From Candidatus Omnitrophota bacterium (GTDB taxonomy: Bacteria > Omnitrophota > Gorgyraeia > Tantalellales > Tantalellaceae), in contig WJMG01000075.1 in the NCBI GenBank assembly GCA_014728075.1, forward strand, positions 4,262 to 68,261: a DNA stretch of 64,000 bases, written 5' to 3'. The translations under genes were made by a program, and so were the position numbers. The notes beneath the pieces are model-generated. The model saw nothing but the letters and a program-made list of their open reading frames with translations, was not told where the DNA came from and made no database searches. Positions 28,158 to 44,584 of the stretch are shown in pieces. Positions within the stretch are counted from its first letter, which is position 1. Every line of letters starts with the position of its first letter.

Positions 28158-29600
28158 TCACATGGAAGGAAGAGCGCTTTCGCCCATAAGGAACCTGTCG
28201 ATATTATAAGCCGCTTTCCGCCCTTCGGATATCGCCCAGACTACAAGCGACTGACCTCTGCGCATATCGCCGGCGGAAAAGACCTTGTCCCTGGATGTCC
28301 TGAAAGAGTCGTCGGTCTTAACATTACCTCTCTCGTCAAGTTCAAGCCCGAGATCGGAAACAAGGCCTCCGTGCTCGGGGTGTACGAAACCTATGGCCAG
28401 GAGGGCCATATCGGCTTCCAGGCGGAATCCGCTTCCCGGAACCTCTTTCATCACCGGGCAGGCCCCTTCTGTTTTTTCGAACTCGACACGAACGCATTCA
28501 AGGGCCGTGAGCTTCCCCCCGGAACCGATAAACTTTTTCGTGAGGACCGACCACTCTCTTTCACTGCCTTCCTCGTGGCTCGAGGATGTCTTAAGGATAA
28601 GGGGGTAAGAAGGCCAGGGGTAGGCGTCCGTCCGGCATTCCTCCGGCCTGGGCATCACCTCTATCTGGACCACACAGGAAGCTCCCTGCCTGTTGGCCGT
28701 CCCGACACAATCGCTGCCCGTGTCCCCGCCGCCTATAACTACAACTTTTTTCCCGGCGGCATCTATGGATTCTTTTTCATCCGGGCCTTCCCCGGAAACA
28801 CGCTTGTTTGACTGGGTGAGGTAATCCATCGCGAAATGAATACCCTCCAGGGCCCTTCCCTCGATATCAAGGTCACGCGGGGTCCTGGACCCTATGGCCA
28901 GACAGACGGCGTCAAAATCATCCAGCAAATCACCGGACCGGTAATCCCTGCCGACCTTAACCGAAGTCCTGAAATCTATCCCTTCCTGCCTGAGAAGATC
29001 AAGCCTTCTTTCAACTATCCGTTTTTCAAGCTTGAAATCGGGTATACCGTATCTCAAAAGCCCGCCCGGCTTATCGTCCTTTTCGAAGACGGTGACGCTG
29101 TGCCCGGCCCTGTTAAGCTGCTGCGCGCACGAAAGGCCGGCGGGCCCCGAACCTACAACGGCGACTTTTTTCCCGGTCCGCTGTCCGGGAGGCTTTGGTT
29201 TGATAATACCTTTCTCGAAAGCGTATTCTATCGCGTCAAGCTCGTTCTCGCGTATAGTTACGGGGTCATCGTTTATCCCCAGGACACAGGAATACTCGCA
29301 CGGGGCGGGGCATATCCTGCCCGTCATCTCAGGAAGGTTGTTGGTAGCGTCCAGGAGCTCGAAAGCCTTATCCCGGCAACCCTCGAAAATAAGGTCGTTC
29401 CATTCCGGTATATAGTTTCCCACCGGGCACGCCCAATGGCAGAAAGGCGTGCCGCAATCCATGCACCTTGCCGCCTGTTCACCGGACTCCTCTCCGCTGC
29501 GCATAATATTGACATACTTGTAATCTTTGACCCTTTCGCACACGGGCCTGTACCCTGCCGTTTTTCTTCCTATTTTCATGAACCCTTTAGGGTCTCCCAT
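28158..29600 (-). CDS. gltD: glutamate synthase (NADPH) small subunit
   Basis: Start set at MGDPKGFMKIGRK (ATG 29600); Cys clusters CMDCGTPFC, CPAPCE; FAD/NADPH motifs VVGSGPAGLS and VIGGGDTGSD. Confidence 0.85.
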   Translation of the reverse strand: MGDPKGFMKIGRKTAGYRPVCERVKDYKYVNIMRSGEESGEQAARCMDCGTPFCHWACPVGNYIPEWNDLIFEGCRDKAFELLDATNNLPEMTGRICPAPCEYSCVLGINDDPVTIRENELDAIEYAFEKGIIKPKPPGQRTGKKVAVVGSGPAGLSCAQQLNRAGHSVTVFEKDDKPGGLLRYGIPDFKLEKRIVERRLDLLRQEGIDFRTSVKVGRDYRSGDLLDDFDAVCLAIGSRTPRDLDIEGRALEGIHFAMDYLTQSNKRVSGEGPDEKESIDAAGKKVVVIGGGDTGSDCVGTANRQGASCVVQIEVMPRPEECRTDAYPWPSYPLILKTSSSHEEGSEREWSVLTKKFIGSGGKLTALECVRVEFEKTEGACPVMKEVPGSGFRLEADMALLAIGFVHPEHGGLVSDLGLELDERGNVKTDDSFRTSRDKVFSAGDMRRGQSLVVWAISEGRKAAYNIDRFLMGESALPSM

Positions 29601-29778
29601 AACTGCTGCTCCTTCTTGCGTGTCATTCCCGCATGCTCTAAGCGGAGGCCGGACAAAAGTATTATTTTGATGGGATCCCCGCTCGACCCCGCTGGCCGAT
29701 TCCCCTCTGGCCGCGGCACTTTCCCGGCAACCTATACCCCCGGTCGCGGGAATGGTAATTTCTGTTCCTTCTTTTCCA

Positions 29779-32700
29779 TTATCCGTCAAATGTTTCCGCC
29801 AGGCCCAGTTTTTCCTCCATCTTCCTGGCTTCGAGTACCCGCTTATACTCTATGGGCATTACCTTAACAAAACGCCCGATAGCCTCGTGCATGTTATCCA
29901 GTATTTTTTTCGCTTTCTCGCTTCCCGTGTAATTCAGATGGTTATGCAGAAGATTATGTATGGTCTCCCTGTCCCCTTCTTCAGGTTCCTCCAGATCCAC
30001 CATGTCCATATTGCATTTCGCCGGGAAAGAACCGTCTTCGTCGTAAATGTAGGCTATGCCTCCCGACATCCCGGCACCGAAATTCCTGCCGGTCGGACCT
30101 ATTATGACCGCCCTCCCGCCTGTCATGTATTCGCATCCGTGGTCCCCGACCCCCTCTGCCACGGCGTAAACACCCGAATTCCTGATACAGAACCTTTCTC
30201 CCGCGACGCCTTTTATGTAAGCTTCACCGGAGATAGCCCCGTAAAAGGTCGTGTTCCCTATTATTATGTTCTGTCCGGGATCGTAATCCGATCTTTTCCC
30301 GGGGTAAATTACGATCTTTCCCCCGGACATGCCTTTGCCTACATAATCGTTAGCCAGGCCCTCAAGCTCGAAAGTTATACCTTTAGCCAGCCACGCGCCA
30401 AAACTCTGTCCCGCTTCTCCCCGGAACCTGCAGTGGATAGTACCTTCCGGAAGACCCCGTTCGCCGTGTTCCATACATACGGCACCGGAAAGCATGGCGC
30501 CGGTAGTCCTGTTCACATTCCTTATAGGAAGTTCTATTTCGACCTTCTCCTCGTTCTTCACGGCCTTTTCCGCAAGCGATATAAGCTCCCTGTCGAGCAC
30601 CGAATCGATACAGTGGTCCTGGGCCCTCTCGCACCTGGTCCCCACCTCCGGGGCGACCTGCGGTTTATAAAGTATCCTCGAAAGGTCCAGGCCCCTCGCT
30701 TTTTCGGGGATGATGTCCCTGTTCACTTCAAGAAGGTCGGTTCTTCCTATCAGCTCGTCAAGCTTTCTTATTCCCAGTTCGGCCATTATCTCCCTGAGTT
30801 CCCGTATAACGAAACGCATATAGGTCTCCACATATTCCGGACGGCCCCTGAACCTTTTCTGGAGCAGGTCGTCCTGAGTAGCAACACCCACGGAACAGTT
30901 ATTGAGATTGCAATGCCTCAGCATAACACACCCGACCGTTATAAGCGCGGCGGTACAGAAACCGTACTCTTCGGCGCCGAGCATAGCCGCCACGGCGACA
31001 TCCCTTCCCGTCCTCATCTGGCCATCGGTCTGGAGCCGCACCCGGCTCCTGAGATCGTTCAGGACGAGCGTCTGGTGTGTCTCGGAAAGCCCTAATTCCC
31101 AGGGGAGTCCGGCATGCCGTATGGAGCTCTTGGGCGAGGCGCCGGTTCCGCCGTCCGCGCCGGAAATAAGTATCATGTCGGCGTGTCCTTTGGCCACGCC
31201 CGCGGCGATGGTACCTACGCCCACTTCCGATACGAGCTTAACGCTTATACGCGCGCCCGGATTGGTGTTCTTCAGGTCAAATATCAGCTGGGCCAGGTCT
31301 TCTATGGAATAGATATCGTGATGCGGCGGAGGGGATATGAGAGTAACCCCGGGAGTAGTATACCTGGTCCTGGCTATGACCGCGCTTACTTTATGACCGG
31401 GGAGCTGGCCGCCCTCGCCCGGCTTGGCTCCCTGAGCTATTTTTATCTGCAGTTCGTCCGAATTGACCATATAATTGGTGGTAACACCGAATCTGCCTGA
31501 AGCCACCTGTTTTATCGCGCTTCTGGCCGAATCCCCGTTAGGCATGGGAACGAACCTCGCGGGATCCTCCCCGCCTTCTCCCGTATTGGATCTGCCTCCG
31601 AGGCGGTTCATCGCTATTGCCAGCGATTCGTGAGCTCCCCTGGATATGGACCCGAAGCTCATCGCGCCCGTGGCGAACCTCTTCACTATTTCTCCCTCGG
31701 GCTCGACCTCTTCCAGGGGCACCGGCGTGTTCTTTCTGAACTTCAGCAAGCTTCTCAGCGTAACGGGCGTATCGGACTGGTCGTTTATCATTTCGGAGAA
31801 AGACCTGTATTTCCGATAATCGGAGTTCCAGACCGCGTCCTGCAGTGCCGCTATCGACTCAGGGTTCCATAGATGTTTTTCCCCGTCCTTTTTCCACTGA
31901 TATATGCCTCCCGTGACAAGATTGTCCGTTTTGAGCGTTTCCACTTCAGGAAAAGCTTCCTTGTGCCTGCTCAGCGTTTCCCGCGCTATCGTGTCGATAT
32001 CCGCTCCGCCTATCCTCGAAGGGGTTCCCGTAAAACATCTGTCGACAACCTCCTCCCCAAGGCCAATAGCCTCGAATATCTGCGCCCCCCTGTAGCTTTT
32101 AAGCGTAGATATGCCCATCTTGGAAAGTATTTTCATTATACCCTTGTTGACCGCCTTACGGTAATTCAAGTGCGCGGTCCCTGCATCGGAACGCAGCCTC
32201 TTTTCCCCGACAAGTTCCGAAACGGCCTTTAGCGCGAGATAAGGGTTCACGCAATCCGCCCCGTAACCGAAAAGAAGGGCGAAATGATGCACTTCCCTGG
32301 GTTCTCCGCTTTCTACGATAAGACCAATCCTGGAGCGAAGGGCCTTTTTAACGAGGAACTGGTGAACGGCCCCGGCGGCCAGAAGCGCGGGAAGGGCGGC
32401 ATGCTCCCTGTCGACGCCCCTGTCGCTTAAAATGACGAAACTATAGCCGTCCTCGATGGCTTTTTCCGCGTCAAGGCATACCCTGTCGAGAGCCTGTTTG
32501 AAAGCTTTTTTATCAGAGGCGTTGAACAGGGTGGATATTGTGGCTGTTCTGAACCCTTTTTCGTCTATCCCCCTGATCTTTTCAAGCTCGTGGTCCATAA
32601 GCACAGGCTCTTTTATCCTGAGTTTATGGGCGTGTTCCGGCGTTTCCCCCAGTATGTTCTTCTGTGACCCCACATAACTTTCCAGGCTCATCACGACCTC

Positions 32701-34311
32701 TTCCCTTATGGGATCTATGGCGGGATTGGTAACCTGGGCGAAAAGCTGCTTGAAATAATTATAGAGGACCTGCGAATGTTTCGAAAGTATCGCGTGAGGC
32801 GTATCGTTCCCCATCGCGCCGATAGGCTCTTTACCTTCCCTGGCCATAGGGACTATTATCTCTTTAAGGTCTTCCCGGGAATACCCGAACGACTTGAGCA
32901 GTGAAGTCACCTCCTCTTTCTCTTCTTTGGCCGGCCCACCGGAGGACAGGTCATCCATTTCAACAAGATTGTCCCTGACCCACCTGCCGTAATCCTGCCG
33001 CCCGCAGACATCTTTCTTTACATCTTTGTCCTCTATTATCTTTCCGGCTTCGGTATCGATAAAAAATATCTTTCCGGGTTCGAGCCTGCCCGACTTGAGT
33101 ATGTCGGCGGGATCGATATCCAGCACTCCCACCTCGGAAGCCATTACGACGGTATCGTCCTTGGTAACTATGTACCGGGCGGGTCTAAGACCGTTACGGT
33201 CGAGCACGGCGCCTATCCTGGTGCCGTCCGTAGCGGCGATGGCCGCCGGTCCGTCCCATGGTTCCATGAAACAGGAATGGAATTTATAAAAATCCCTTAG
33301 CTCCTTATCCATGAGATCATTATGCTCCCAGGCGCCGGGAACGAGCATCAGCATGACATGGGGCAGGGACCTTCCTGAAAGCTCCAGGAGCTCGAAAACA
33401 TTATCTATCGTGGCGGAATCACTGCCGCCTTCGACTATAACGGGTTTTATCTTCTCCAGGTCCCGTCCGAAATCGCCGCTTTCGAGAAGCCCTTCGCGGG
33501 CGCGCATCCAGTTTATGTTGCCCCTTAAAGTGTTTATCTCTCCGTTATGGGCAAGAAAGCGGAAAGGCTGGGCGAGGTCCCATGTAGGGAAAGTGTTCGT
33601 ACTGTACCGGGAGTGCACAAGAGCCAGGGACGAAACGACATCTTTCTCCCTGAGGTCGACAAAGTAATCTTTTACCTGATGCGGCATCAGCAGACCCTTG
33701 TAGCTCAATGTCCTGGAAGAAAGATTGGTTATGTAGAAAAAGGACTTCTGTTCAATAGTCGAAGCCTTAACCTGTTTTTCAGCTATCCTCCTGATAACAT
33801 AAAGCTTCCGTTCGAAGTCCATTATCGCGTTTACCGACCCGCCCGCTTTTATGATAGGCTGTTTGATGACCGGCTGGGTCTCGAGGGCGCCTTTGCCTAT
33901 GATCGAATCGTCCACGGGAACTTCTCTCCAGCCCAGAAATTCCTGTCCTTCTTCCTTTACGGCCTTTTCCAGGGTTTTCTCGCAAAAATCCCTGTCTTCC
34001 GGCTCTTCCGGAAGGAAAACAAGCCCGGTCCCGTATTCCCCCGCCGCAGGAAGCTCTATTCCCAGCGTTTTGACGGACCTTCGAAGAAAAGCGTCCGGCA
34101 TCTGTATAAGTATCCCCGCGCCGTCACCGGTCTCGGGATCAGCGCCTACCGCCCCTCTGTGGCTCATGTGCTCAAGGACATTTATGGCTTTGCTGATTAT
34201 GTCGTAAGACCTCTCTCCTTTTACATTGCAGACAAACCCTACACCGCAGCTGTCGTGCTCGAAAAAAGGGTCGTAAAGGCCCTGTTTCGGAGGTAAATGC
34301 TTAAATCCCAT
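29779..34311 (-). CDS. gltB: glutamate synthase large subunit
   Basis: 1510 aa; N-terminal Ntn amidotransferase (FEHDSCGVGF), FMN and 3Fe-4S domains, C-terminal GXGXG beta-helix. Confidence 0.95.
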   Translation of the reverse strand: MGFKHLPPKQGLYDPFFEHDSCGVGFVCNVKGERSYDIISKAINVLEHMSHRGAVGADPETGDGAGILIQMPDAFLRRSVKTLGIELPAAGEYGTGLVFLPEEPEDRDFCEKTLEKAVKEEGQEFLGWREVPVDDSIIGKGALETQPVIKQPIIKAGGSVNAIMDFERKLYVIRRIAEKQVKASTIEQKSFFYITNLSSRTLSYKGLLMPHQVKDYFVDLREKDVVSSLALVHSRYSTNTFPTWDLAQPFRFLAHNGEINTLRGNINWMRAREGLLESGDFGRDLEKIKPVIVEGGSDSATIDNVFELLELSGRSLPHVMLMLVPGAWEHNDLMDKELRDFYKFHSCFMEPWDGPAAIAATDGTRIGAVLDRNGLRPARYIVTKDDTVVMASEVGVLDIDPADILKSGRLEPGKIFFIDTEAGKIIEDKDVKKDVCGRQDYGRWVRDNLVEMDDLSSGGPAKEEKEEVTSLLKSFGYSREDLKEIIVPMAREGKEPIGAMGNDTPHAILSKHSQVLYNYFKQLFAQVTNPAIDPIREEVVMSLESYVGSQKNILGETPEHAHKLRIKEPVLMDHELEKIRGIDEKGFRTATISTLFNASDKKAFKQALDRVCLDAEKAIEDGYSFVILSDRGVDREHAALPALLAAGAVHQFLVKKALRSRIGLIVESGEPREVHHFALLFGYGADCVNPYLALKAVSELVGEKRLRSDAGTAHLNYRKAVNKGIMKILSKMGISTLKSYRGAQIFEAIGLGEEVVDRCFTGTPSRIGGADIDTIARETLSRHKEAFPEVETLKTDNLVTGGIYQWKKDGEKHLWNPESIAALQDAVWNSDYRKYRSFSEMINDQSDTPVTLRSLLKFRKNTPVPLEEVEPEGEIVKRFATGAMSFGSISRGAHESLAIAMNRLGGRSNTGEGGEDPARFVPMPNGDSARSAIKQVASGRFGVTTNYMVNSDELQIKIAQGAKPGEGGQLPGHKVSAVIARTRYTTPGVTLISPPPHHDIYSIEDLAQLIFDLKNTNPGARISVKLVSEVGVGTIAAGVAKGHADMILISGADGGTGASPKSSIRHAGLPWELGLSETHQTLVLNDLRSRVRLQTDGQMRTGRDVAVAAMLGAEEYGFCTAALITVGCVMLRHCNLNNCSVGVATQDDLLQKRFRGRPEYVETYMRFVIRELREIMAELGIRKLDELIGRTDLLEVNRDIIPEKARGLDLSRILYKPQVAPEVGTRCERAQDHCIDSVLDRELISLAEKAVKNEEKVEIELPIRNVNRTTGAMLSGAVCMEHGERGLPEGTIHCRFRGEAGQSFGAWLAKGITFELEGLANDYVGKGMSGGKIVIYPGKRSDYDPGQNIIIGNTTFYGAISGEAYIKGVAGERFCIRNSGVYAVAEGVGDHGCEYMTGGRAVIIGPTGRNFGAGMSGGIAYIYDEDGSFPAKCNMDMVDLEEPEEGDRETIHNLLHNHLNYTGSEKAKKILDNMHEAIGRFVKVMPIEYKRVLEARKMEEKLGLAETFDG

Positions 34312-34328: not shown

Positions 34329-34550
34329 TCAAATTCTGTACTTTTTGACATCTATCCCGAGCTTCCGTATCTTCAGCCTGAGAGTATTCCTGTTTATTCC
34401 CAGAAGCTTCGCGGCGATCGACTGGTTGCCGAAAGCCCTTTTCAGGGCTTTTTCAATAAGCAGTTTTTCAGTACCGCTGATCACCCTGTCGTAAACGCAT
34501 CCCGTATCCGCCGCCGAAAAAACCTCATCGATATTAATATCTTCCCTCAT
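34329..34550 (-). CDS. Fis-family helix-turn-helix DNA-binding protein
   Basis: 73 aa; C-terminal HTH_8 (EKALKRAFGNQSIAAKLLGINRNTLRLKIRKLGI); first gene of the unit containing gltB. Confidence 0.6.
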   Translation of the reverse strand: MREDINIDEVFSAADTGCVYDRVISGTEKLLIEKALKRAFGNQSIAAKLLGINRNTLRLKIRKLGIDVKKYRI

Positions 34551-34628
34551 AACGCTCTCCTGGAATTAGGTTAGTGTTGAACGGTATTTCCAGGACTCCG
34601 CGAACAGGTCTTTTGTATTTCGCCCTTG

Positions 34629-34669
34629 AAATAAAAAAAGCCTTACCAAGCGTCGGAGCTTGATAAGGC
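34629..34669 (-). terminator. rho-independent terminator inside the leader of the fis-like/gltB unit
   Basis: Minus-sense GCCUUAUCAAGC-uccgac-GCUUGGUAAGGC (12-bp stem) followed by UUUUUUUAUUU. Confidence 0.6.
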
Positions 34670-34787
34670 GTCTTTGCCTTAAAGCGAAGTCTTACAGACC
34701 TTTATGAAGCCTAAAAACTCATCGATGAGCATCGGAACTCCCGGGACCGCCCGGTCCCCGGTTCGGTACAGCTTCACTCAGGTGCCC

Positions 34788-34816
34788 ATTCTACCATTCA
34801 TAAATACATATGTCAA
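34788..34816 (-). promoter_or_regulatory. sigma70-like promoter TTGACA - 17 nt - TAGAAT
   Basis: Consensus -35, 17-nt spacer, 5/6 -10; fires towards the terminator and the fis-like gene. Confidence 0.5.
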
Positions 34817-34851
34817 TATGTAAATCCGGCGGTTTTTGAGCCTTTTTAGGC

Positions 34852-35571
34852 TTATAATCGCTCATTTTCCGACCGGTATCGCATTATGTTCTCGAAGTTA
34901 CGGCATATCCTATAGGCCTCATTTTCAAGAGTTTTTCTGAAGTTTTTCTCATCTTCAAGTAATTTTCCGGCCTTTTCAGAGTATTCCTTTCCCTCTTCGG
35001 AATATTCCTTTATCCACCTTTTCACCATCTCCGAAGTAACCTCGAAATGAAATTGAAGCCCGTAGGCATGATCTCCGATCCGGAAGGCCTGGTTGGGACA
35101 GAGCTCTCCGGCAGCGAGGGCCTCCCCATCAGGCGGAATATCGAAAGTATCCTCGTGCCACTGAAAGACCCTCATCACCTCTCCCATTCCGCTGAAAAGA
35201 GGGTCTTCTCTGCCCTTTTCGGTCAATTCCGCGGTATAATAGCCTATCTCGGGTACAGGAGACCTTTTTACGGCCGCGCCGAAAGTTTTTGCCAGCAGCT
35301 GTGCCCCGAGACAGATGCCCATAAACGGTATTCCGCGGTCCGCGGCTTTTCGGATGAACTTACACTCTTCGGACAGGTAAGGGTATTTTCCCTCTTCGTA
35401 AACATTCATGGGCCCTCCGAGGACGATAATACCGTCAGTGCCTTCGGGACTTTGCGGCAGCCTGTCTCCCTGATAAAGGTCTATTGTCACGGAGGGATGA
35501 TCCGCGTTATCGAAAAAGTCCCCTATAAGCCCCGGGCCCTCAATGGAAATGTTCTTTATGTAAATTATCAT
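34852..35571 (-). CDS. class I glutamine amidotransferase-like protein
   Basis: 239 aa; catalytic-triad context GICLGAQLL and HED. Confidence 0.8.
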   Translation of the reverse strand: MIIYIKNISIEGPGLIGDFFDNADHPSVTIDLYQGDRLPQSPEGTDGIIVLGGPMNVYEEGKYPYLSEECKFIRKAADRGIPFMGICLGAQLLAKTFGAAVKRSPVPEIGYYTAELTEKGREDPLFSGMGEVMRVFQWHEDTFDIPPDGEALAAGELCPNQAFRIGDHAYGLQFHFEVTSEMVKRWIKEYSEEGKEYSEKAGKLLEDEKNFRKTLENEAYRICRNFENIMRYRSENERL

Positions 35572-35672: not shown

Positions 35673-36014
35673 CTACCCTATCGCCTCGTGCCCGGTCTCT
35701 CCGGTCCGTATGCGGATGCAATCGGCGAGATCCAGGACGAGTATCTTCCCGTCCCCTATATTTCCGGTCCTCGCTCCTTTTACGATAGCGTCTATAGTAG
35801 GCTGGACGAACTCCTTGTTCACCGCTATCTCAAGCCTTATCTTCTTGAGAAGGTTCACTTCGTGGACCACGCCCCTGTATGTCTCGGTAAAACCTTTCTG
35901 CTGGCCGCAACCGAGCGCGTTAGTAACTGTCATCTTATGTATGTCCGCCTCAAAAAGCGCTTTTTTGACATCGGGCAGCTTGTGAGGCTGTATCATCGCT
36001 ACTATCAACTTCAT
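35673..36014 (-). CDS. glnK: nitrogen regulatory protein P-II
   Basis: 113 aa from [10 protein letters not shown]; T-loop (GFTETYRG) and B-loop (TGNIGDGKI); AAGGAG Shine-Dalgarno sequence. Confidence 0.9.
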
Positions 36015-36091
36015 GGCGATCACTCCTTGTTCAGTTATTAGTTAAGAGCCTCCGGACCGGACCGGTTCTTTCTCCGGACCCGTACTCTGAA

Positions 36092-37438
36092 CTACTGCGT
36101 TGTAAAGATCTGGAAACCCGAATACGCCTCCATGCCGTGTTCGGTTATGTCCAGGCCTTTGAGTTCTTCTTCCCTCGAGACCCTGAGCCCGATAACCGCG
36201 TTGATGGTCTTGAAAACAACTGTCATGGCTACCAGGACGAACGCTACTACGGCAAAAGCGCCGAGCGCCTGTATGCCGAGCTGTTCAAATCCCCCTCCGT
36301 GCAATAGGCCGTCACGGGCAAGCCCCAGAGCTTTACGCCCGAATATACCTACGGCGAGGGTCCCCCAGATACCGTTGACCATATGCACGGGGACAGCGCC
36401 TACCGGATCGTCTATCTGGACCCTGTCAAGGAACAAGGTCGCGGCTACTACCAGTATACCCCCGATGGCCCCTATCAGAAGAGCTTCGGCAGGTATGACA
36501 TACGCGCATGGCGCCGTTATGGCCACAAGGCCGGCCAGAGCGCCGTTCATGGTCATGGTCAGATCGGGCTTTCCGCACTTTTTCCAGGCGTAGAACATTG
36601 CCACGAGAGCTCCGCTGACGGCCGAAAGGTTCGTGTTAACGGCAACCTTGGCTATAAGGCTTCCGTCACCGACAGCAAGCGTGGATCCCGGGTTGAACCC
36701 GAACCAGGCAAACCACAGTATAAGGGCTCCCAGCGAGGCCAGGGCCATGGAATGCCCTTCTATGGCATTGGCCGAACCGTCCTTATTGTATTTACCTATT
36801 CTCGGGCCCAGCACCATGGTCCCTACCAGCGCGGCCGTGCCGCCGACGGCGTGTACCACCGCGGATCCCGCGAAATCGCCGAAACCCAGCCCGGCGAGCC
36901 AGCCGCCGCCCCAGACCCAGTGGCCTACGAAGGGGTACACGGCAGCCGATATAATGAAAGAATACATGAGATACGCTTTGAACTTCATCCTTCCCGCGAT
37001 GCCTCCCGCGACTATGGTCGCGGCCGCTCCGCAAAATACGGCGTGGAAGAACCAGGTAGCCTCAAGCGGAAGCGCGCCTTCGTGTGCGGCGTTTATGAGC
37101 ATCCATCCTTCCCAGCCCATGAAACCGTTTCCCTTGCCGAACATTATGGCGTACCCGAACATGAAAAATCCCATTGAAGCCATGCAGAAGTCCAGAAAGT
37201 TGTTCATCAGGACATTACATACATTCTTCGTCCTCAACAGACCCGCTTCAAGCATACCGAAACCGGCCTGCATGATAAAGACCATAAAGGCCGCTATCAT
37301 CACCCAAAGGGTATCGATACCGGTAGTAGTGGCATACTTTTCCGTTCCCTCGGCCAGGGCGGGCCCGGCGAGAAAGCCGAACGCGAAAGCGGCAGAGGCG
37401 GCAGCGAATACCGTTCTTCTTAACCATCCCCTCTTCAT
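36092..37438 (-). CDS. amtB: ammonium transporter Amt
   Basis: 448 aa, signal peptide plus 11 TM helices, Amt signature. Confidence 0.95.
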   Translation of the reverse strand: MKRGWLRRTVFAAASAAFAFGFLAGPALAEGTEKYATTTGIDTLWVMIAAFMVFIMQAGFGMLEAGLLRTKNVCNVLMNNFLDFCMASMGFFMFGYAIMFGKGNGFMGWEGWMLINAAHEGALPLEATWFFHAVFCGAAATIVAGGIAGRMKFKAYLMYSFIISAAVYPFVGHWVWGGGWLAGLGFGDFAGSAVVHAVGGTAALVGTMVLGPRIGKYNKDGSANAIEGHSMALASLGALILWFAWFGFNPGSTLAVGDGSLIAKVAVNTNLSAVSGALVAMFYAWKKCGKPDLTMTMNGALAGLVAITAPCAYVIPAEALLIGAIGGILVVAATLFLDRVQIDDPVGAVPVHMVNGIWGTLAVGIFGRKALGLARDGLLHGGGFEQLGIQALGAFAVVAFVLVAMTVVFKTINAVIGLRVSREEELKGLDITEHGMEAYSGFQIFTTQ

Positions 37439-37459: not shown

Positions 37460-37503
37460 AAAAAGATAAGGCGCCTTCCGGCCTACACGGCCAAAAGACG
37501 CCT
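37460..37503 (-). terminator. terminator-like hairpin with U-tract in the amtB(1) leader
   Basis: Minus-sense GGCG..GGCCGUGUAGGCC..CGCC followed by UUAUCUUUUUU, about 40 nt upstream of the amtB ATG. Confidence 0.4.
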
Positions 37504-37531
37504 TCGTCGTTACCATTACCCGTAATATCGC

Positions 37532-37582
37532 GCACATCACTGTGCTTGATAATACAAGTAAACCGGGGATGGTTATGGTAAC
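37532..37582 (-). promoter_or_regulatory. conserved nitrogen-operon upstream element, copy 1
   Basis: About 50 nt shared with copy 2 at 40648..40702: GTTACC-N9-CCGGNTTTACTTGTATTATC(A/G)AGCAC-N6-GTGC. Confidence 0.5.
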
Positions 37583-37659: not shown

Positions 37660-38001
37660 TTAACCTATCGCCTCACTTCCCGTCTCCCCTGTCCTTATCC
37701 TTACACATTCCGCGAGATCCATAACAAAGATCTTCCCGTCTCCTATATTGCCCGTCCTCGCCCCTTTTACGATAGCGTCTATAGTGGGCTGGACGAAGTC
37801 CTTGTTAACCGCTATCTCCAGCCTTATCTTCTTGAGAAGGTTCACTTCGTGGACCACGCCCCTGTATGTCTCGGTAAAACCCTTCTGCTGGCCGCAGCCG
37901 AGGGCGTTGGTGACCGTCATCTTGAAGACCTCGGCCTCGTACAAAGCCTTCTTAACATCGGGCAGTTTGTGCGGCTGTATCATCGCTACTATAAGTTTCA
38001 T
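37660..38001 (-). CDS. glnK: nitrogen regulatory protein P-II (second copy)
   Basis: 113 aa from MKLIVAMIQ; AAGGAGGG Shine-Dalgarno sequence. Confidence 0.9.
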
Positions 38002-38013
38002 GACCACCCTCCT

Positions 38014-39360
38014 TTATTTGGATTCTGTCGCGAATATCTGGAACCCGGCATAGGACTCCATACCGTGTTCGCCTATATCCAGCCCTTTAAGCTGTTCCTC
38101 ATCGGAAGCCCTCAGGCCCATGGTCAGCTTAATAATACCGAAAAGCGCGAAGGCGGCCCCGAAAGTCCACAGAAAAACCGAACCCACACCTACGGCCTGC
38201 GTTATTAACTGGGACAGACCTCCACCGAAGAAAAGGCCGTTGGCTCCCCCGTAGGCCTCCTGGGCGAACAGCCCGACGGCAAGGGTGCCCCAGGCTCCGC
38301 ATACGCCGTGTACGGAGACCGCGCCGACGGGATCGTCGATCCTGAGGACCTTGTCGATGAACTCGACGCTGAAAACTACCAGTATCCCGGCTACCGCACC
38401 TATGATGATCGCGCTGGAGGGAGATACATTGGCGCAACCCGCGGTTATTCCGACAAGCCCGGCCAGCGCGCCGTTAAGCGACATACTGACATCCGGCTTA
38501 CCGAACTGCAGCCAGACCGTTATCATGGCCGCCACCGCGCCCGCGGCCGCCGCAAGATTGGTAGTAACCGCTATTACCGCTATGCTCAGGTCGGTACCGG
38601 CCGTCGTACTGCCGGCGTTGAAACCGAACCATCCGAACCACAATATGAACACACCGAGCGCGGCAAGAGGTATGTTATGGCCCTGTATGGCGTTGGATGA
38701 CCCGTCACTGTTATACTTACCGAGTCTTGGCCCCAGAAGCAGGGCTCCGGCGAGAGCCGCCCATCCGCCTACCGAATGCACTACGGTGGACCCGGCAAAA
38801 TCGATCATTCCTTTCGCCGAAAGCCATCCGCCTCCCCATATCCAGTGCCCCACTACCGGATATATAACAGCGGTAAGAAAAGCGCTGTAGGCCAGATAGG
38901 AAGAGAACTTGGTCCTTTCCGCCATCGCTCCCGAAACGATAGTGGCCGCGGTCGCCGCGAACACCGCCTGGAAGATCCAGAAAGTGAACTGCCAGAGACC
39001 GTCGGCGGTCGACGGGTCGGCACTGCTTAAAAAGAAACCGCTCTTTCCGAAAAGCCCGAAAGCGCTCGCCCCGAACATTATCGCGAAACCCACGGCCCAG
39101 TAAGCCAGTGAACCTACGGCGAAATCCATAAGGTTCTTCATCATTATGTTACACGCGTTCTTGGCCCTGGTAAACCCGGTTTCCACCATCGCGAAACCGG
39201 CCTGCATGAAAAACACCAGTATCGCGGCGAGAAGGGTCCACACGGTGTCGATAGCCACCGCGTTGGAAGCCGCTGTGGCCCCGTCATCCCCCCACGCCCG
39301 CGGCACCAGACCAAGGACCAGAGCCGGCATTATCCTGAGTATTTTACTTAACATCTTCAT
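38014..39360 (-). CDS. amtB: ammonium transporter Amt (second copy)
   Basis: 448 aa; paralogue of 36092..37438. Confidence 0.95.
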   Translation of the reverse strand: MKMLSKILRIMPALVLGLVPRAWGDDGATAASNAVAIDTVWTLLAAILVFFMQAGFAMVETGFTRAKNACNIMMKNLMDFAVGSLAYWAVGFAIMFGASAFGLFGKSGFFLSSADPSTADGLWQFTFWIFQAVFAATAATIVSGAMAERTKFSSYLAYSAFLTAVIYPVVGHWIWGGGWLSAKGMIDFAGSTVVHSVGGWAALAGALLLGPRLGKYNSDGSSNAIQGHNIPLAALGVFILWFGWFGFNAGSTTAGTDLSIAVIAVTTNLAAAAGAVAAMITVWLQFGKPDVSMSLNGALAGLVGITAGCANVSPSSAIIIGAVAGILVVFSVEFIDKVLRIDDPVGAVSVHGVCGAWGTLAVGLFAQEAYGGANGLFFGGGLSQLITQAVGVGSVFLWTFGAAFALFGIIKLTMGLRASDEEQLKGLDIGEHGMESYAGFQIFATESK

Positions 39361-39394: not shown

Positions 39395-40222
39395 TCAATA
39401 AGAGAATCCTAATGTCACCCCGCCGAAGAACTCGTTCTCCTGCGCGTCGTTATAGGTATCCCTGTCCAGTATTACCGAATAGGAAACATTGGGCACCAGA
39501 TAAAAATGGTTGAAGAACGGTATTGTAACATCAAGCGACAAAAGCATATCGCTCCATCCGTGTTTATCCGTCCACTGTTCGTAATTGTAGCCGAAGGCAG
39601 CGCCTATATCGGCCGTGATATCGTTCCCCAGGTCAAAAGTATGTCCGCCGCCGAACTGGAGATATGAACCGTGGCCGGCTTCGACATCCCAGTACCAGGT
39701 AAAGAAAGGCTGGAGGAGAATGTCGTAAGAAGTTCCCACAAAGACCTCATGGGAAGTGGCTCCCTTCTCATCCAGGTCCATGTTGGGAAAAGTGTAAAAG
39801 GTATATCCCATCGAAATGCTCCACGGGTCCAGCGCCTCCGCGTCTTCAACGCCCATGTAACCCATCATCTCTCCGACGGAAAACTCGTAACTGGCTGTAT
39901 AATCAAGTTCAGTAAGCTCCTGGTACGACCCGTTCGCCTTGTCGCGGCTCATGCTGTAGTTCCCCCAGAGATCCAGAGTGAACCCGTATTTTGACAGGTT
40001 GACATCGAACTGCATTACCGGGGCGTCGACCAGGTTCTGCCCTCTCCAGATGTACTTGCTCATGAAAGCGGTGCTTGCGTCAAGATCGGGCATGCCCTCC
40101 GGCTTCGCGGGCAGATAATCCTCCTCCATGTCAAGTACGGCATGAGCGCTCGCGCACATTAAGGTAATCCCCGCAAAAAGCGTGAACGCCCTCAAAAAGA
40201 TCTTTTTCCTGAAACTGCACAT
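39395..40222 (-). CDS. putative outer-membrane porin (beta-barrel)
   Basis: Start at MCSFRKK with AAGGAGGG Shine-Dalgarno; signal peptide; alternating aromatic/hydrophilic strands; ends GFSY. Confidence 0.5.
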   Translation of the reverse strand: MCSFRKKIFLRAFTLFAGITLMCASAHAVLDMEEDYLPAKPEGMPDLDASTAFMSKYIWRGQNLVDAPVMQFDVNLSKYGFTLDLWGNYSMSRDKANGSYQELTELDYTASYEFSVGEMMGYMGVEDAEALDPWSISMGYTFYTFPNMDLDEKGATSHEVFVGTSYDILLQPFFTWYWDVEAGHGSYLQFGGGHTFDLGNDITADIGAAFGYNYEQWTDKHGWSDMLLSLDVTIPFFNHFYLVPNVSYSVILDRDTYNDAQENEFFGGVTLGFSY

Positions 40223-40518
40223 GATACCCTCCTTCTTTTCGTTTTCGAGAGACTTTCTCCCCCTGATATGTAACATTCTTCCACCGACATGACCTCCAGG
40301 TCAAGCATTTTGATCCCTTTTCCGAACATGCGCTCGAAGTCAGATGTGATCCTCGGCAACTCCTCTCCCGTAACATATGCTTCTATTCTGACATCGAACC
40401 ATATTTCGGGGATTTCACCGAAGTCGAGGACCAGCATCCTTTTCACTCCGGCCCCGGAAAGTCTTGAAAGGACCGGGTCCAGCTCGGAGCGTTCGCACCT
40501 TAACTCGATCTTCTTCAT
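40192..40518 (-). CDS. small PII-like (GlnB-fold-like) protein, function unknown
   Basis: 108 aa from MKKIELRCERSELDPVLSRLSGAGVKRMLVLDFGE (AGGAGGGGAAGG Shine-Dalgarno sequence); the N-terminal pattern mirrors GlnB. The 3' end overlaps the porin start by 31 nt. Confidence 0.4.
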   Translation of the reverse strand: MKKIELRCERSELDPVLSRLSGAGVKRMLVLDFGEIPEIWFDVRIEAYVTGEELPRITSDFERMFGKGIKMLDLEVMSVEECYISGGESLSKTKRRRVSCAVSGKRSF

Positions 40519-40532: not shown

Positions 40533-40580
40533 CTTTAAAAAAAAGCGCCCTGCCCCTTCCCGAATCTCCGGAAAGAGAGG
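40533..40580 (-). terminator. hairpin plus U8 tract in the leader of the PII-like/porin/amtB operon
   Basis: Minus-sense CUCUUUCC-ggagauucg-GGAAGGGG ... GGGCGCUUUUUUUU, about 20 nt upstream of the Shine-Dalgarno sequence. Confidence 0.35.
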
Positions 40581-40647
40581 ACGCCCTTGTCAAAAAAGAC
40601 ATTCCTCCCGGAACGCCTTTGTCTGATAACATCTTTGTGTTCTTTTA

Positions 40648-40702
40648 CCGTGCACTGCTACGTGCTCGATAATACAAGTAAATCCGGATACTTTCCGGTA
40701 AC
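40648..40702 (-). promoter_or_regulatory. conserved nitrogen-operon upstream element, copy 2
   Basis: See copy 1; contains CCGGATTTACTTGTATTATCGAGCACGTAGCAGTGCACGG. Confidence 0.5.
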
Positions 40703-41223
40703 TACATAAGCTCTTCCTTGAGCGCCGAGCATTTTTCCCTTATGTTCTTAGTTATCTTCCCCACCATTACATGCGAAACCCCTATTTTATCGCCTATCTC
40801 CCTGGTGGTGTAACCTTCCAACCTGTAGAAAAACACATTCTTTTCCCTTTCCGTGAACATTGACTCCGTTTCGTCCAGAAGAAGGTATATCTCCAGGGTC
40901 CCCGTATCCTTTGTATAACTATCGGAGACCAGGGTATCCTCGATGGTGATATCCTCCTCGATAGGGGTATACATGCTGATGGAATTCCTGTCCACGCTCT
41001 TGCATATTTTCCTTATATAGTTCTTCAGGAAGAAATATGACCCCTGAAGTATATAGCTGTCGGTCTTTCCTTCCAGCTCGCCGTTCTCGAACCTTAGCCA
41101 GAGGTCAAGAAGGGCTTCCTGAAAGAAATCGTCCTCGTCGCAGTAAGAATATCTGTTCCTTACCTTGTACGAAATAGCTCTTATCCTGGGCGAATATTTT
41201 GCGAGAACATCTTCGTAGCTCAT
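40702..41223 (-). CDS. RNA polymerase sigma factor, sigma-70 family (ECF-sized)
   Basis: 173 aa from MSYEDVL; region 2 (FFQEALLDLWLRF) and region 4 HTH (REKNVFFYRLEGYTTREIGDKIGVSHVMV). Confidence 0.7.
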   Translation of the reverse strand: MSYEDVLAKYSPRIRAISYKVRNRYSYCDEDDFFQEALLDLWLRFENGELEGKTDSYILQGSYFFLKNYIRKICKSVDRNSISMYTPIEEDITIEDTLVSDSYTKDTGTLEIYLLLDETESMFTEREKNVFFYRLEGYTTREIGDKIGVSHVMVGKITKNIREKCSALKEELM

Positions 41224-41254: not shown

Positions 41255-41300
41255 AAAAAGCCCTTTCGGGTCCTTTTCAGGACCCGAAAGGGCTTCGATG
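41255..41300 (-). terminator. rho-independent terminator after the GAF-ANTAR gene
   Basis: Minus-sense GAAGCCCUUUCGGGUCC-ugaaaa-GGACCCGAAAGGGCUU followed by UUUUCUUUAU. Confidence 0.75.
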
Positions 41301-41440
41301 CCTTAACCCGGCCGCGGGCTTTATGAACTAAAAAAGAGGCTTCCATTCCGGTAAGCCTCTTCGCGTTTTGTACATCCGTGTACGACTTTTATTATACTAC
41401 TTTCCCGGATCAAAGTCAACAACTATCGTCTTTCACAAGG

Positions 41441-42148
41441 TCACTTTTTACCGCCCGATATCTCGAAGGACAGTATAACGGCCTCTGCCACTTCCTTCAT
41501 GGAAATACGCTTGTTCATGCTGGACTTCCTCAAGAGCTTGTATGCCTCGTCCTCGGAAAGGTCCTGCTGCCTCATCAGAATACCCTTTGCTTTCTCGACC
41601 TTTTTCCTGGTCTCGAGCTCTTCCTGGATCACTTTGGTCTTTACCATCAGTTCTGTATTCTCTATCGCTACAGCCGCCTGGTTGGCGACGGCGCTCAGAA
41701 GTTCAATATCACTTTTGGTAAAATCGTGTTTCTCGACCGTGTAAACATTTATAACGCCTATGACCTTTTCCTTGACCATCATAGGCACGCTTAACATCGA
41801 AATAAGGCCTTCTTTCTTCGCGAGCTGCTTTTCCTTATACCTGTCGTCCTGGGAAACATCCTTTATAACAAGCGGCTCGGCTTCTTCGGCTACCAGGCCC
41901 ACTATACCCTCCCCCACCTTTATGGCCCTTTCTTTCAGATATTCCTGGCTCATTGCCTGCGTTGCCCTTATCCTGAGTTCCCCGGCTTCTTCGTCGAGAA
42001 GCCAGAGAGCGCATATTTCGGCCCCCATGACACCCGCGGTGAGATTAACGATCAGCTTAAGTATATCCTCGAGGTAAAGGTCGCTGGTTATAGCGTGGCT
42101 TATCCTGGTCAAGGTCGAAAGATATTCTTTTTCAGAAGATTTCGGCAT
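41441..42148 (-). CDS. GAF-ANTAR RNA-binding antitermination regulator
   Basis: 235 aa; N-terminal GAF domain, C-terminal ANTAR motif (AKGILMRQQDLSEDEAYKLLRKSSMNKRISMKEVAEAVI). Confidence 0.8.
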   Translation of the reverse strand: MPKSSEKEYLSTLTRISHAITSDLYLEDILKLIVNLTAGVMGAEICALWLLDEEAGELRIRATQAMSQEYLKERAIKVGEGIVGLVAEEAEPLVIKDVSQDDRYKEKQLAKKEGLISMLSVPMMVKEKVIGVINVYTVEKHDFTKSDIELLSAVANQAAVAIENTELMVKTKVIQEELETRKKVEKAKGILMRQQDLSEDEAYKLLRKSSMNKRISMKEVAEAVILSFEISGGKK

Positions 42149-42264
42149 GATTTTTCCCCGGTTTAAATATTTATCGCTGCCCTGTCCTCGGGCATTCTCG
42201 AAACATATCCCCCGCTTTCACCCGGGCTTCTTCGCCGCGGAAGTTCCCGGGACATTCCGAGTTT

Positions 42265-42297
42265 ATGAGTTACGGGCGCAAAGCGCCCGTAACTCAT
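42265..42297. repeat. 33-nt perfect palindrome ATGAGTTACGGGCGC-AAA-GCGCCCGTAACTCAT
   Basis: 15-bp perfect inverted repeat with a 3-nt centre, 9 nt past the glnN stop codon and upstream of the GAF-ANTAR gene. Confidence 0.8.
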
Positions 42298-42306
42298 GTG
42301 CTCATT

Positions 42307-44400
42307 TTACATCATGAAGAGCATTTCCGCGTAAGACGGGAGCGGCCAGATCTCGTCCGGAAGAAGTTCTTCCAGACGGTCGACGGCTACTCTGAGCTCG
42401 TTCATAGCGTCTATCTTTTCGGAAGCCTTGCCTCCAAGAGCGGCTTCGAGTTCCTTTATACCCTTGAGCATCTTCTCGGTCTCGCCGCCTACTTCCTTGA
42501 GAAGGTCCATAGTACCGTCCGACTTGCACCCGCATGTTTTCATGTCATCTATGGTCCCCGCGAGCGAAGACTGGTACTCCAGGGCTATGGGAACTATCAT
42601 TGTCCTGGCCATTTTGAGCGCGACACTGGCTTCGATAGTAATGGTCTCTTCATACTGCTCCTCGTAGATATCGTGCCTTGAAGCCAGCTCCTCGGGTGTG
42701 AGGACTTTATGTTTCTTGAACATCTCGATCACTTTAGGATCTTTTGTAGCTTCGAGAGCCGCTTCGGTGTTCCTCAGGTTCGGAAGCCCTCTCTTTTCGG
42801 CTTCCTTGTGCCAGTCTTCGGTATAATTATCACCGTTGAAGAGTATTCTTTTATGTTTTTTGACTATACCCTGAAGCACGACCTGTAGAGCTTCGTTAAA
42901 ATCCTTACCGGATTTCACATCAGACTCGAGTTCCGTGCATATCTCATCGAGAGCATCCGCGACTATAGTGTTAAGCACGATGTTAGGCCCGGCGCAGCTC
43001 TGGTTGGATCCCGGCGCCCGGAACTCGAACTTATTCCCCGTAAAGGCGAAGGGGCTCGTCCTGTTCCTGTCAGTCACATCTTTGGGAAGCTGCGGCAGGG
43101 AATCCACCCCGAGTTCAAGGAGATCCGCCTGCTTTGAGCTTTTTGCGCCACCCTTTTCTATCTGGTCGATTATATCCGTAAGCTGGTCTCCCAGAAATAT
43201 GGACAGTATCGCCGGCGGAGCCTCGTTAGCGCCCAGCCTGTGGTCGTTACCGGCGGTAGCTACCGAAGCTCTAAGCATCGGCGCGTTAGTATCGATCGCC
43301 TTCATGAGCGCGCATATCATGGTAAGGAACTTGGCGTTCTCGTGCGGATTATCCCCCGGGGAAAGCCAGTTCTTGCCGTCCGGACCGACCACCGACCAGT
43401 TGTTATGCTTACCCGATCCATTGACCCCGGCGTATGGTTTTTCGTGAAGAAGGCATACAAAACCGTGCTTTTCCGCCACCTTTTTCAGCGTCTCCATACA
43501 TATCATGTTGTGATCTATCGAAAGGTTCTGCTCCTCAAAAACCGGAGCTATCTCGAACTGCGCCGGACAGACCTCGTTGTGACGGGTCTTTGCCGGTATA
43601 CCCAGCCTCCAGAGCTCCCTGTCCAGATCGTCCATAAAGGACATGACCCTTGTCCTGATAGCTCCGAAGTAATGATCGTCCATCTGCTGGTGTTTAGCCG
43701 GGGCGCTGCCGAAAAGGGTCCTTCCCGTCTGTATCAGGTCAAGCCTGGCTTCGTAAAACGACCTGTCGACAAGAAAATATTCCTGTTCGGGGCCGAGGGT
43801 GGCGTAAGCTCTCTTGTCTTTAGTGTCTATACCGAAAAGCCCAGCCAGGCGGCATACCTGTTTTGAGAGAGCCGCGACCGACCTTAAAAGAGGTGTCTTC
43901 TTGTCAAGCGCTACCCCTGTATAGGAATAGAAAGCCGTCGGGATGCACAGGGTCGCCCCTATTTCCCCTTTCTTTATGAAAGCGGGCGAAGTCGGGTCCC
44001 ATGCGGTATACCCTCTGGCTTCGAAGGTAGCCCTGAGCCCTCCGGACGGAAAACTTGAAGCGTCCGGCTCGCCTTTAATAAGCTCATTGCCGGAAAATTT
44101 CATAATAACGCCGCCTTCCTGGTCCGGCTCTATGAAAGAATCGTGTTTTTCGGCCGTCGCCCCCGTGAGCGGCTGGAACCAGTGGGTAAAATGGGTCGCG
44201 CCCTTAGCGACCGCCCAGGTCTTCATGGCGTCGGCGACCTCGTCGGCTATGGAAGGGTCTATCGTCTTGCCTTCCTTTATTGTCGCGATAAGCGAACCAT
44301 ACGCTTTTTCCGAAAGGTAATTGCGCATGTTCTTGATGCTGAAAACATTCTCGCCGTAAATATCCGCTACCGACCTTACTCCCATTTCTTCCTTACACAT
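42307..44400 (-). CDS. glnN: glutamine synthetase type III
   Basis: About 697 aa from MCKEEMGV (AAGGAGG Shine-Dalgarno sequence); length and conserved segments typical of GSIII (GlnN). Confidence 0.9.
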   Translation of the reverse strand: MCKEEMGVRSVADIYGENVFSIKNMRNYLSEKAYGSLIATIKEGKTIDPSIADEVADAMKTWAVAKGATHFTHWFQPLTGATAEKHDSFIEPDQEGGVIMKFSGNELIKGEPDASSFPSGGLRATFEARGYTAWDPTSPAFIKKGEIGATLCIPTAFYSYTGVALDKKTPLLRSVAALSKQVCRLAGLFGIDTKDKRAYATLGPEQEYFLVDRSFYEARLDLIQTGRTLFGSAPAKHQQMDDHYFGAIRTRVMSFMDDLDRELWRLGIPAKTRHNEVCPAQFEIAPVFEEQNLSIDHNMICMETLKKVAEKHGFVCLLHEKPYAGVNGSGKHNNWSVVGPDGKNWLSPGDNPHENAKFLTMICALMKAIDTNAPMLRASVATAGNDHRLGANEAPPAILSIFLGDQLTDIIDQIEKGGAKSSKQADLLELGVDSLPQLPKDVTDRNRTSPFAFTGNKFEFRAPGSNQSCAGPNIVLNTIVADALDEICTELESDVKSGKDFNEALQVVLQGIVKKHKRILFNGDNYTEDWHKEAEKRGLPNLRNTEAALEATKDPKVIEMFKKHKVLTPEELASRHDIYEEQYEETITIEASVALKMARTMIVPIALEYQSSLAGTIDDMKTCGCKSDGTMDLLKEVGGETEKMLKGIKELEAALGGKASEKIDAMNELRVAVDRLEELLPDEIWPLPSYAEMLFMM

Positions 44401-44448
44401 GACTACCTCCTTGGATTGTATGACACACACTAAATTTTACTCTTTTTC

Positions 44449-44584
44449 GCCTGAAAAAGAAAGAACATCCTTTCCGGGCCGCTATAAAAGAAGCCTTAAA
44501 AGGATGTTCTTCCCTGAACTTCCCGTTTATCCCTCACAACAAAGTGGGGGTAAAAAGAAAAGGCACTCCCGTAAAAGGAATGCC
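44449..44584 (-). promoter_or_regulatory. glnN leader with two terminator-like hairpins (candidate attenuator)
   Basis: Hairpin 1 GGCAUUCC-uuuuac-GGGAGUGCC plus UUUUCUUUUU (44551..44584). Hairpin 2 AGAACAUCCUUUU...AAAGGAUGUUCUU plus UCUUUUUC (44449..44510). Confidence 0.5.

Follow-up and report, generated by a model that had tools for sequence, protein, structure and literature searches.

The RNA target of ANTAR proteins has been defined as two hairpins of at least 3 bp with hexaloops that carry A1 and G4, separated by a variable linker and followed by a terminator that overlaps the second hairpin, P2 (Ramesh et al. 2012, PMC3369931). In Geobacter sulfurreducens, binding of the regulator GnfR to the site CAGGCAANGGCGCC, a GGC-hexaloop-GCC hairpin, was shown experimentally; the nifH, glnK and amtB leaders have premature terminators with which this site overlaps (Ueki & Lovley 2010, PMC2995071). 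In 2012, P-II, amt, glutamine synthetase and glutamate synthase genes were widely predicted to be under ANTAR control (PMC3369931); the paradigm of ANTAR control of nitrogen genes was established in 2010-2012 and is left unchanged by the present data. Here we analyse a stretch of 64,000 nucleotides from a Candidatus Omnitrophota bacterium (contig WJMG01000075.1; hereafter the 64-kb window, to which all positions refer) and focus on the 5' leader of its fis-like-gltB-gltD operon, which, judging from sequence and predicted folding, is most likely an ANTAR-type, protein-dependent transcription attenuator. No description of ANTAR systems in Omnitrophota was found in the literature searched.

The leader and its hexaloop hairpins

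All elements of the leader lie on the minus strand. The upstream gene, encoding a class-I glutamine amidotransferase (GATase), ends at 34852, and the -35 hexamer TTGACA (34811-34816) begins 35 nt past its stop. Together with an extended -10 element (TGgTAGAAT, 34788-34796) and a 17-nt spacer it forms a promoter that matches the sigma-70 consensus at 11 of 12 positions, in addition to the TG motif; from the promoter spacing alone, transcription is predicted to start at about 34783-34778. An intrinsic terminator (GCCUUAUCAAGC-UCCGAC-GCUUGGUAAGGC, 34640-34669; 12 bp, 6 of them G-C, -18.4 kcal/mol) starts 118 nt past the -10 and is directly followed by the U-tract U7AUUU (34629-34639), and the ATG of the fis-like gene is found at 34550, 82-89 nt past the U-tract. 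The original prediction had described the same layout: a TTGACA-17-TAGAAT promoter 35 nt after the GATase stop, a terminator with 12-bp stem and U7 about 120 nt further on and the fis-like ATG some 90 nt after it. It had also recognised no riboswitch class; Rfam scans of the locus likewise came up empty, both at gathering thresholds and, over 34500-34900, at E values up to 10. The computed length of the terminated transcript is about 143-149 nt; its minimum free energy (MFE) is -58.2 kcal/mol (z = -3.4 versus dinucleotide shuffles).

Two hexaloop hairpins lie between promoter and terminator. P1 (GCUC-AUCGAU-GAGU, 34717-34730) has a stem of 4 bp and P2, the putative antiterminator hairpin (UAAGGC-AAAGAC-GCCUUA, 34664-34681), one of 6 bp and a folding energy of -6.6 kcal/mol; both loops carry A1 and G4. 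The nucleotides 34669-34664 are common to the 3' arm of P2 and the 5' arm of the terminator, of which they are the first 6 nt; P2 and terminator are therefore mutually exclusive and, given the -6.6 versus -18.4 kcal/mol, termination should be the default, with the switch off. P2 (AAGGCAAAGACGCC) is nearly identical to the site bound by GnfR: 11 of the 13 specified positions agree, and the nitrogen theme is shared too. The arrangement also resembles the EutV/EutW-controlled eutP, eutG, eutS and eutA leaders in Enterococcus faecalis (PMC3369931), which have two A1/G4 hexaloop hairpins, a P2 3' arm that overlaps the terminator, conserved loop-closing pairs and several attenuators in one locus. 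In the NasR/nasF system of Klebsiella and the AmiR/amiE system of Pseudomonas, too, an ANTAR protein stabilises a hexaloop hairpin in front of a terminator.

Orthologous and sibling leaders

Leaders of orthologous fis/gltB operons were available from 17 other genomes and in each of the 17, one or more hexaloop hairpins are fused to a terminator (18 of 18 when the window is included). Seven of them (L163, L164, L166, L168, L169, L170 and L021) have two or three complete attenuators in tandem behind a single promoter, one of them three; the window leader and L171 have a single attenuator each, and tandem copies appear to be gained and lost quickly. The upstream neighbour of these leaders is not constant and can be GATase, P-II, NAD synthase, dCMP deaminase or a divergent gene, indicating that the module belongs to fis/gltB and not to the 3' end of the GATase gene. 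This is difficult to reconcile with a terminator that merely ends the amt-P-II-GATase transcript next to an unrelated or inactive promoter match, the scenario that had been named as refuting the original prediction. The terminator does lie only 183 nt past the GATase stop, with no other terminator between, but orthologous loci have promoter and attenuator leader in front of fis/gltB also where the upstream gene is P-II, NAD synthase, dCMP deaminase or a divergent one; the closest orthologue has kept the promoter, and each of the 18 leaders has its terminator fused to a conserved hexaloop hairpin. Synteny and the changing upstream genes thus contradict this scenario, and we consider it very improbable.

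The closest orthologous leader, L161, keeps the promoter (with identical -35 and a -10 of ATGGTAGAATG), P1, the mini-hairpin of the linker, P2, both terminator arms, the U-tract and the Shine-Dalgarno region, and differs in the terminator loop and the 5' 50 nt. Its P1 is UUUUGCUC-AUCGGA-GAGUAAAA, with A1, G4 and stem all retained, and its P2 (CAGGCAAGGACGCC) has the loop AAGGAC, again with A1 and G4, and agrees with the GnfR site at 12 of 13 specified positions. The mini-hairpin (GGUCU-GUA-AGACU, 34688-34700) is located within the 35-nt linker between P1 and P2, at the position of the canonical hexaloop P1 of relatives (GGUCCC-GCGGAA-GGGACC in L008); a U-A pair in it is U-G in L161, with pairing retained. 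All 32 proposed pairs hold in both window and L161, versus 32-56% in slid controls; the differences consist of one double change (C-G to U-A) and four pairing-preserving single changes. In the terminator, 12 of 12 pairs are kept, with one double and two single compensating changes.

The 5' domain of the leader (34781-34735) shows no conservation in L161. The original prediction had pointed to a GGGACCG/GGUCCC hairpin in this region: the hairpin is present (GGGACC-GGGC-GGUCCC, 34743-34758, -10.4 kcal/mol) but not conserved, even in this closest orthologue, and was rejected as the functional core. In relatives with tandem attenuators the corresponding position belongs to terminator 1; L161 has the first terminator of a tandem pair there, and the 5' domain of the window therefore looks like a decayed first attenuator. 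A P2-like fold in the same region (CCGG-GCGGUC-CCGG, 34754-34741) was tried as the relic of such an attenuator and rejected, as no terminator follows and R1, the covariance model described below, has no match there. Conservation, which had been proposed as a check, is found for the two hexaloop hairpins and the terminator and not for the 5' half of the leader.

A metabolite riboswitch that acts on the terminator without a protein, responding for example to glutamine or another nitrogen metabolite, would have the same promoter-leader-terminator layout and a structured leader, and the context of nitrogen metabolism genes would suit it. However, no Rfam family was detected at E values up to 10, although a TPP (thiamine pyrophosphate) riboswitch elsewhere in the window was easily found; there is no conserved structure of aptamer size, the 5' domain diverges in L161, and the conserved parts are two hairpins of 14 to 18 nt that match a protein-binding motif. 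Of the two possibilities originally offered for this leader, riboswitch or attenuator of the fis-like/gltB unit, it is the attenuator that the data support, and a metabolite riboswitch appears highly improbable. Attenuation by a translating ribosome deserves almost no weight: the leader has a 17-codon ORF (open reading frame; 34732-34682, MLIDEFLGFIKVCKTSL) with a GGGAG motif 5 nt upstream and a stop at the base of P2, but it contains no run of nitrogen-related codons, and L161 has no ORF of the same frame or start; its short ORF encodes an unrelated peptide. Leader-peptide attenuation was therefore rejected.

The same design is found six more times in the gene cluster to which the operon belongs, giving a total of seven elements in five leaders, all on the minus strand. 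Upstream of the gene for type III glutamine synthetase (GSIII), M1 (44558-44650) has a promoter TTGACA-16-TAAAAT (44650-44623), the hairpins CUGCAC-GAAGCA-GUGCGG and GAAAGC-AAAGAG-GCAUUC and a terminator (element 44616-44558). Two elements precede the sigma-like gene in tandem: M2a (41337-41419) with promoter TTGACT-17-TATAAT (41419-41391), GUAC-ACGGAU-GUAC, CGC-GAAGAG-GC and a terminator (element 41384-41337), and M2b (41257-41320) with GCCC-GCGGCC-GGGU, GGC-AUCGAA-GCC and an 18-bp terminator. M5 (40544-40682), upstream of a 108-aa ORF, has GCAC-GUAGCA-GUGC and GAC-AAAGGC-GUU with a terminator (element 40641-40597), then GAC-AAGGGC-GUC with a second terminator (element 40604-40544). M4 (37466-37562), between a P-II gene and the second amt, consists of GCAC-AGUGAU-GUGC, a 23-nt linker, GAC-GAAGGC-GUC and a 16-bp terminator (element 37546-37466). 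Promoter-like sites are not enriched as a class (3 found versus 2.1 expected); within the 19-kb cluster just three sites, at 44650, 41419 and 34816, match sigma-70 at 11/12, and each of them is closely followed by a terminator-bearing leader. An exact 15-mer, TTTACTTGTATTATC, occurs twice, at 37548-37562 and 40668-40682 on the minus strand, each time directly 5' of the GCAC-hexaloop-GUGC P1. Variants of it follow closely behind the sigma-like gene in L030, L048 and L057. The 15-mer may serve as a promoter, possibly one used by the sigma-like factor of the cluster itself.

These elements were also found with the covariance model R1, which was built from 43 dual-hexaloop instances of other genomes only, with no window sequence, and does not include terminators. 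The window was searched with filters off on both strands (128 kb). The six best matches are five sibling elements and the fis/gltB leader: M4 and the first element of M5 (20.0 bits each), M1 (18.4), M2a (17.8), M2b (16.7) and, at rank 6, the fis/gltB leader (34693-34665, 16.5 bits). The sixth sibling, the second element of M5 (M5b, 40604-40578; 9.8 bits), ranks tenth. The matches of all seven elements end within the 5' arm of a terminator, as do six of the top seven matches. The chance of this is about 1% per position and, by our own calculation, P is about 1e-11 for six of seven; because the lenient terminator caller over-calls (82 sites in 128 kb), it served only as a conservative denominator. 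The seventh match (33908-33884, minus strand, 16.2 bits, AUAGGC-AAAGGC-GCCCU), located in the coding sequence of gltB and not accompanied by a terminator, probably arose by chance and shows that E values of single matches are marginal for so small a motif. R1 replaced a Python scan for dual hexaloops that was too crude: it had returned six matches in the window, versus 1.1 ± 1.5 in Markov simulations (maximum 6), with false positives inside gltB (33139) and thiG (20519).

Outside the window, R1 has 69 matches at E values up to 1 in 1.08 Mb of loci anchored on GAF-ANTAR genes, 68 of them on the strand of the ANTAR gene, versus 4 matches in 0.30 Mb of control loci, which come from a metagenome scan with the fis-like protein and are mostly anchored on distant HTH_8 proteins of at most 52% identity. 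Of 25 non-seed matches, 19 are followed by an overlapping terminator according to a strict script and several more by eye; the next identifiable genes are sigL, amt, P-II, GSIII, the gene of a 293-aa protein and gltB. Directly downstream of the ANTAR gene, a near-invariant AAC-AAAGAA-GUU ... GGC-AAAGAA-GCC with terminator is present in dozens of genomes.

The siblings also bear on the second option of the original prediction, a small RNA (sRNA) of about 140 nt. A free-standing trans-acting sRNA gene of about 145 nt, unrelated to the control of fis/gltB, would be consistent with the strong promoter, the strong terminator and a predicted transcript that folds better than its shuffles. However, conservation is limited to P1, P2, the terminator and the post-terminator leader and does not extend to the 5' 50 nt, fis/gltB directly follows the module in every case, regardless of what is encoded before it, the six sibling elements are located in front of other nitrogen genes, and the Rfam scan of the locus gave no match. 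Such a gene is improbable, as the module is invariably linked to fis/gltB and shows no conservation beyond its switch elements; a terminated leader RNA of about 145 nt is in any case the expected by-product of the OFF state.

The nitrogen cluster and its candidate regulator

The leader is located at the downstream end of a co-oriented, minus-strand cluster of nitrogen assimilation genes, and the proteins of the neighbouring genes have their best relatives in metagenome-assembled genomes (MAGs) of Omnitrophota. In the direction of transcription, the cluster starts with GSIII (42307-44430), a GAF-ANTAR protein of 235 aa (41441-42148; GAF 3e-25, ANTAR (PF03861) 2e-21), the sigma-like or GerE-like protein of 173 aa (40702-41223; weak GerE and Sigma70_r4 matches only, E 1e-3 to 1e-2), the 108-aa ORF (40192-40518) and the 293-aa protein (39395-40276), the latter two with no Pfam match. 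These are followed by amt (38014-39360), P-II (37660-38007), a second amt (36092-37438), another P-II (35673-36023) and GATase (34852-35571), and, behind the leader, by the 73-aa fis-like HTH_8 protein (34329-34550), gltB (glutamate synthase large subunit, 1510 aa, 29779-34311) and gltD (small subunit, 28158-29789). The fis-like protein is 100% identical to GF408_06375 of a Candidatus Omnitrophota MAG.

The presumed antiterminator is the GAF-ANTAR protein, whose gene lies in the same cluster, 7 kb upstream of the fis/gltB leader. Homologues with 60-83% identity are present in 80 genomes. Its ANTAR domain aligns with those of EutV (6wsh), Rv1626 (1s8n) and NasR (4akk), and its GAF domain is closest to EI-Ntr/PtsP (3ci6, 3trc) and the NifA-like Nlh1 (4g3k). 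GAF domains of the EI-Ntr and NifA-like type sense glutamine and 2-oxoglutarate. This likeness, together with the make-up of the regulon, suggests that the protein is activated under nitrogen limitation by sensing 2-oxoglutarate or glutamine.

The sensor distinguishes the candidate regulator from those of the known systems. GnfR is a phosphorylated REC-ANTAR response regulator with a partner kinase and its Geobacter targets are nif genes, whereas here a GAF sensor is found, with no kinase in the cluster, and the presumed targets are those of the glutamine synthetase-glutamate synthase (GS-GOGAT) pathway and amt, in the phylum Omnitrophota. EutV is also a REC-ANTAR protein, responds to ethanolamine and acts on ethanolamine catabolism; NasR has a NIT sensor and AmiR a pseudo-receiver with the partner AmiC, each acting on a single locus in response to nitrate or amides. 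Most similar in their targets are the regulons predicted for the Firmicutes Desulfotomaculum reducens, D. acetoxidans, Carboxydothermus and Alkaliphilus (Ramesh et al. 2012, Fig. 9 and Table S2), with the same classes of target genes, pairing of glutamine synthetase with ANTAR genes and genomes that contain numerous attenuators, as many as 13 in six transcription units; their regulators are ANTAR response regulators where the domain type is named, in contrast to the one-component GAF-ANTAR protein of Omnitrophota, and both sets are predictions. At the time of Ramesh et al. 2012 (PMC3369931) the GAF-ANTAR architecture had yet to be characterised, and no later characterisation was found in the literature searched.

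As only 64 kb of the genome are visible, another RNA-binding factor from outside the window, an ANTAR paralogue or an unrelated protein, could act on the leader instead; relatives (L013, L014, L016, L019, L068, L070 and L076-L078) do have a second ANTAR paralogue nearby. Such a factor seems improbable, given that a canonical dual-hexaloop element lies directly downstream of the GAF-ANTAR gene in dozens of genomes and that the GAF-ANTAR gene sits inside the regulated cluster. In the Thermodesulfobacteriota/Syntrophaceae loci L068-L080, a variant of the element that is specific to this lineage (CAAUAC-hexaloop-GUAUUG ... GAC-AARGGC-GUC with terminator) comes after GAF-ANTAR homologues of 60-63% identity, and a second ANTAR paralogue is often a few kb away.

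Several further features of the cluster were observed. In many Omnitrophota loci the sigma-like gene (40702-41223) has kept its place immediately after the GAF-ANTAR gene; it lies behind a tandem attenuator, and its product may be a second-tier regulator of the cluster. The 293-aa protein, which has a signal-peptide-like N-terminus, is conserved beside amt in many related loci, at 22-52% identity; it may form a channel through which ammonium crosses the outer membrane. The spacer between the GSIII and ANTAR genes (42149-42306, minus strand) contains a 15-bp palindromic hairpin (42298-42264) with no U-tract and next to it a hexaloop hairpin, GGC-GAAGAA-GCC, with no terminator (weak R1 match, 9.7 bits); a role in processing or stability is conceivable, as is one as an autoregulatory ANTAR site. 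Apart from the nitrogen cluster, the TPP riboswitch mentioned above (RF00059, 73.3 bits; 22268-22376, minus strand) is the only Rfam match in the window and precedes a thiamine operon, with thiE-like (21260-21913), thiG (20428-21234) and a radical-SAM/BATS thiH-like gene (19217-20350).

A candidate antitermination switch for nitrogen assimilation

In the proposed mechanism, the strong sigma-70 promoter would start a transcript in which P1 (34730-34717) and P2 (34681-34664) fold. By default, the more stable terminator would capture the GCCUUA strand that it shares with P2, RNA polymerase would stop at U7 and release the RNA of about 145 nt, and the operon would be off. Under nitrogen limitation, signalled by 2-oxoglutarate or glutamine at the GAF domain, an activated GAF-ANTAR dimer would bind the A1/G4 hexaloops and lock P2, so that the terminator is blocked and polymerase reads through.

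Compared with the published definition of an ANTAR target, the leader has two hairpins of at least 3 bp (P1 with 4 bp and P2 with 6 bp, both kept in L161), hexaloops with A1 and G4 (AUCGAU and AAAGAC; AUCGGA and AAGGAC in L161) and a terminator that overlaps P2, likewise in 18 of 18 leaders; an ANTAR protein, the product of 41441-42148, is encoded in the same genome, and the independent covariance model R1 detects the element at rank 6. Several points weigh against an ANTAR attenuator, however. The R1 score of the fis/gltB leader (16.5 bits, E = 0.15) is marginal alone, and R1 aligned no canonical P1 in it. The linker between P1 and P2 has 35 nt and includes the mini-hairpin, whereas linkers of 5-12 nt are found in eut leaders and work with EutV, and linkers of 3 or 14 nt impair function, with impaired induction at 14 nt (PMC3369931); longer linkers are found elsewhere, with 23 nt in M4 and about 20-25 nt in non-seed R1 matches of L001, L047 and L026. 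The hairpin at the position of the relatives' P1 has a loop of 3 to 5 nt in the window leader, and the mini-hairpin was for this reason dropped as a canonical P1, even though relatives have a hexaloop P1 there. Covariation between window and L161 is statistically weak, with 257 of 500 shuffles reaching the observed score; this, like the limited support for P1, is due to L161 being the only close orthologue. At the level of the family, covariation is partly circular, since the R1 seeds were chosen by a scan based on pairing. Finally, with only 64 kb of the genome seen, the true regulator could be a different ANTAR paralogue.

Downstream of the terminator the leader has further structure. A third hexaloop hairpin with A1 and G4 (AUUUC-AAGGGC-GAAAU, 34617-34632; weak R1 match, 10.7 bits) starts inside the U-tract and is conserved in L161 with the loop AAGGCU; it forms too late to influence termination. 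In the predicted MFE fold, the Shine-Dalgarno motif of the fis-like gene (AGGAG within UUCCAGGAGAG, 34555-34565) is sequestered by an anti-Shine-Dalgarno strand (UCCUGGAA, 34588-34595) that pairs with 34565-34558 in an 8-bp helix, UCCUGGAA/UUCCAGGA. L161 has the same helix as UCCUGGUU/AACCGGGA, with AA/UU swapped to UU/AA, two compensatory swaps identified by eye in columns that MAFFT gaps; this conserved helix may add a translational layer.

Two extensions of the attenuator model have, one or the other, an outside chance of being correct: the RNA of about 145 nt, which carries both hexaloop hairpins, could serve as a trans-acting decoy and titrate the GAF-ANTAR protein, or the post-terminator hairpin (34632-34617) and the anti-Shine-Dalgarno helix could be a second, translational ANTAR checkpoint. 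The sRNAs EutX and Rli55 reportedly carry an ANTAR site, sequester EutV and are fused to a B12 riboswitch; they are similar in that they are short terminated RNAs with an ANTAR-binding dual hairpin, as the OFF-state product here would be, and differ in being dedicated sRNAs, whereas trans action of the fis/gltB leader RNA is hypothetical. If true, a decoy would provide a built-in threshold or feedback for the seven-element regulon, as EutX and Rli55 do for EutV, and a translational checkpoint would mean that one protein gates both transcription and translation of the same leader.

With the same switch in front of GSIII and the ANTAR gene, the sigma-like gene, the small ORF and amt, the GS-GOGAT and ammonium uptake cluster would form one regulon. 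Minor interest lies in the phylum, in the use of a GAF sensor, in how densely the elements occur and in the long structured linker; ANTAR sites with linkers of this kind may escape existing models. For the uncultivated phylum Omnitrophota, the ANTAR-type attenuator proposed here offers a testable model of how GS-GOGAT and ammonium uptake may be switched, with one GAF-ANTAR protein that would control five leaders through seven RNA elements.

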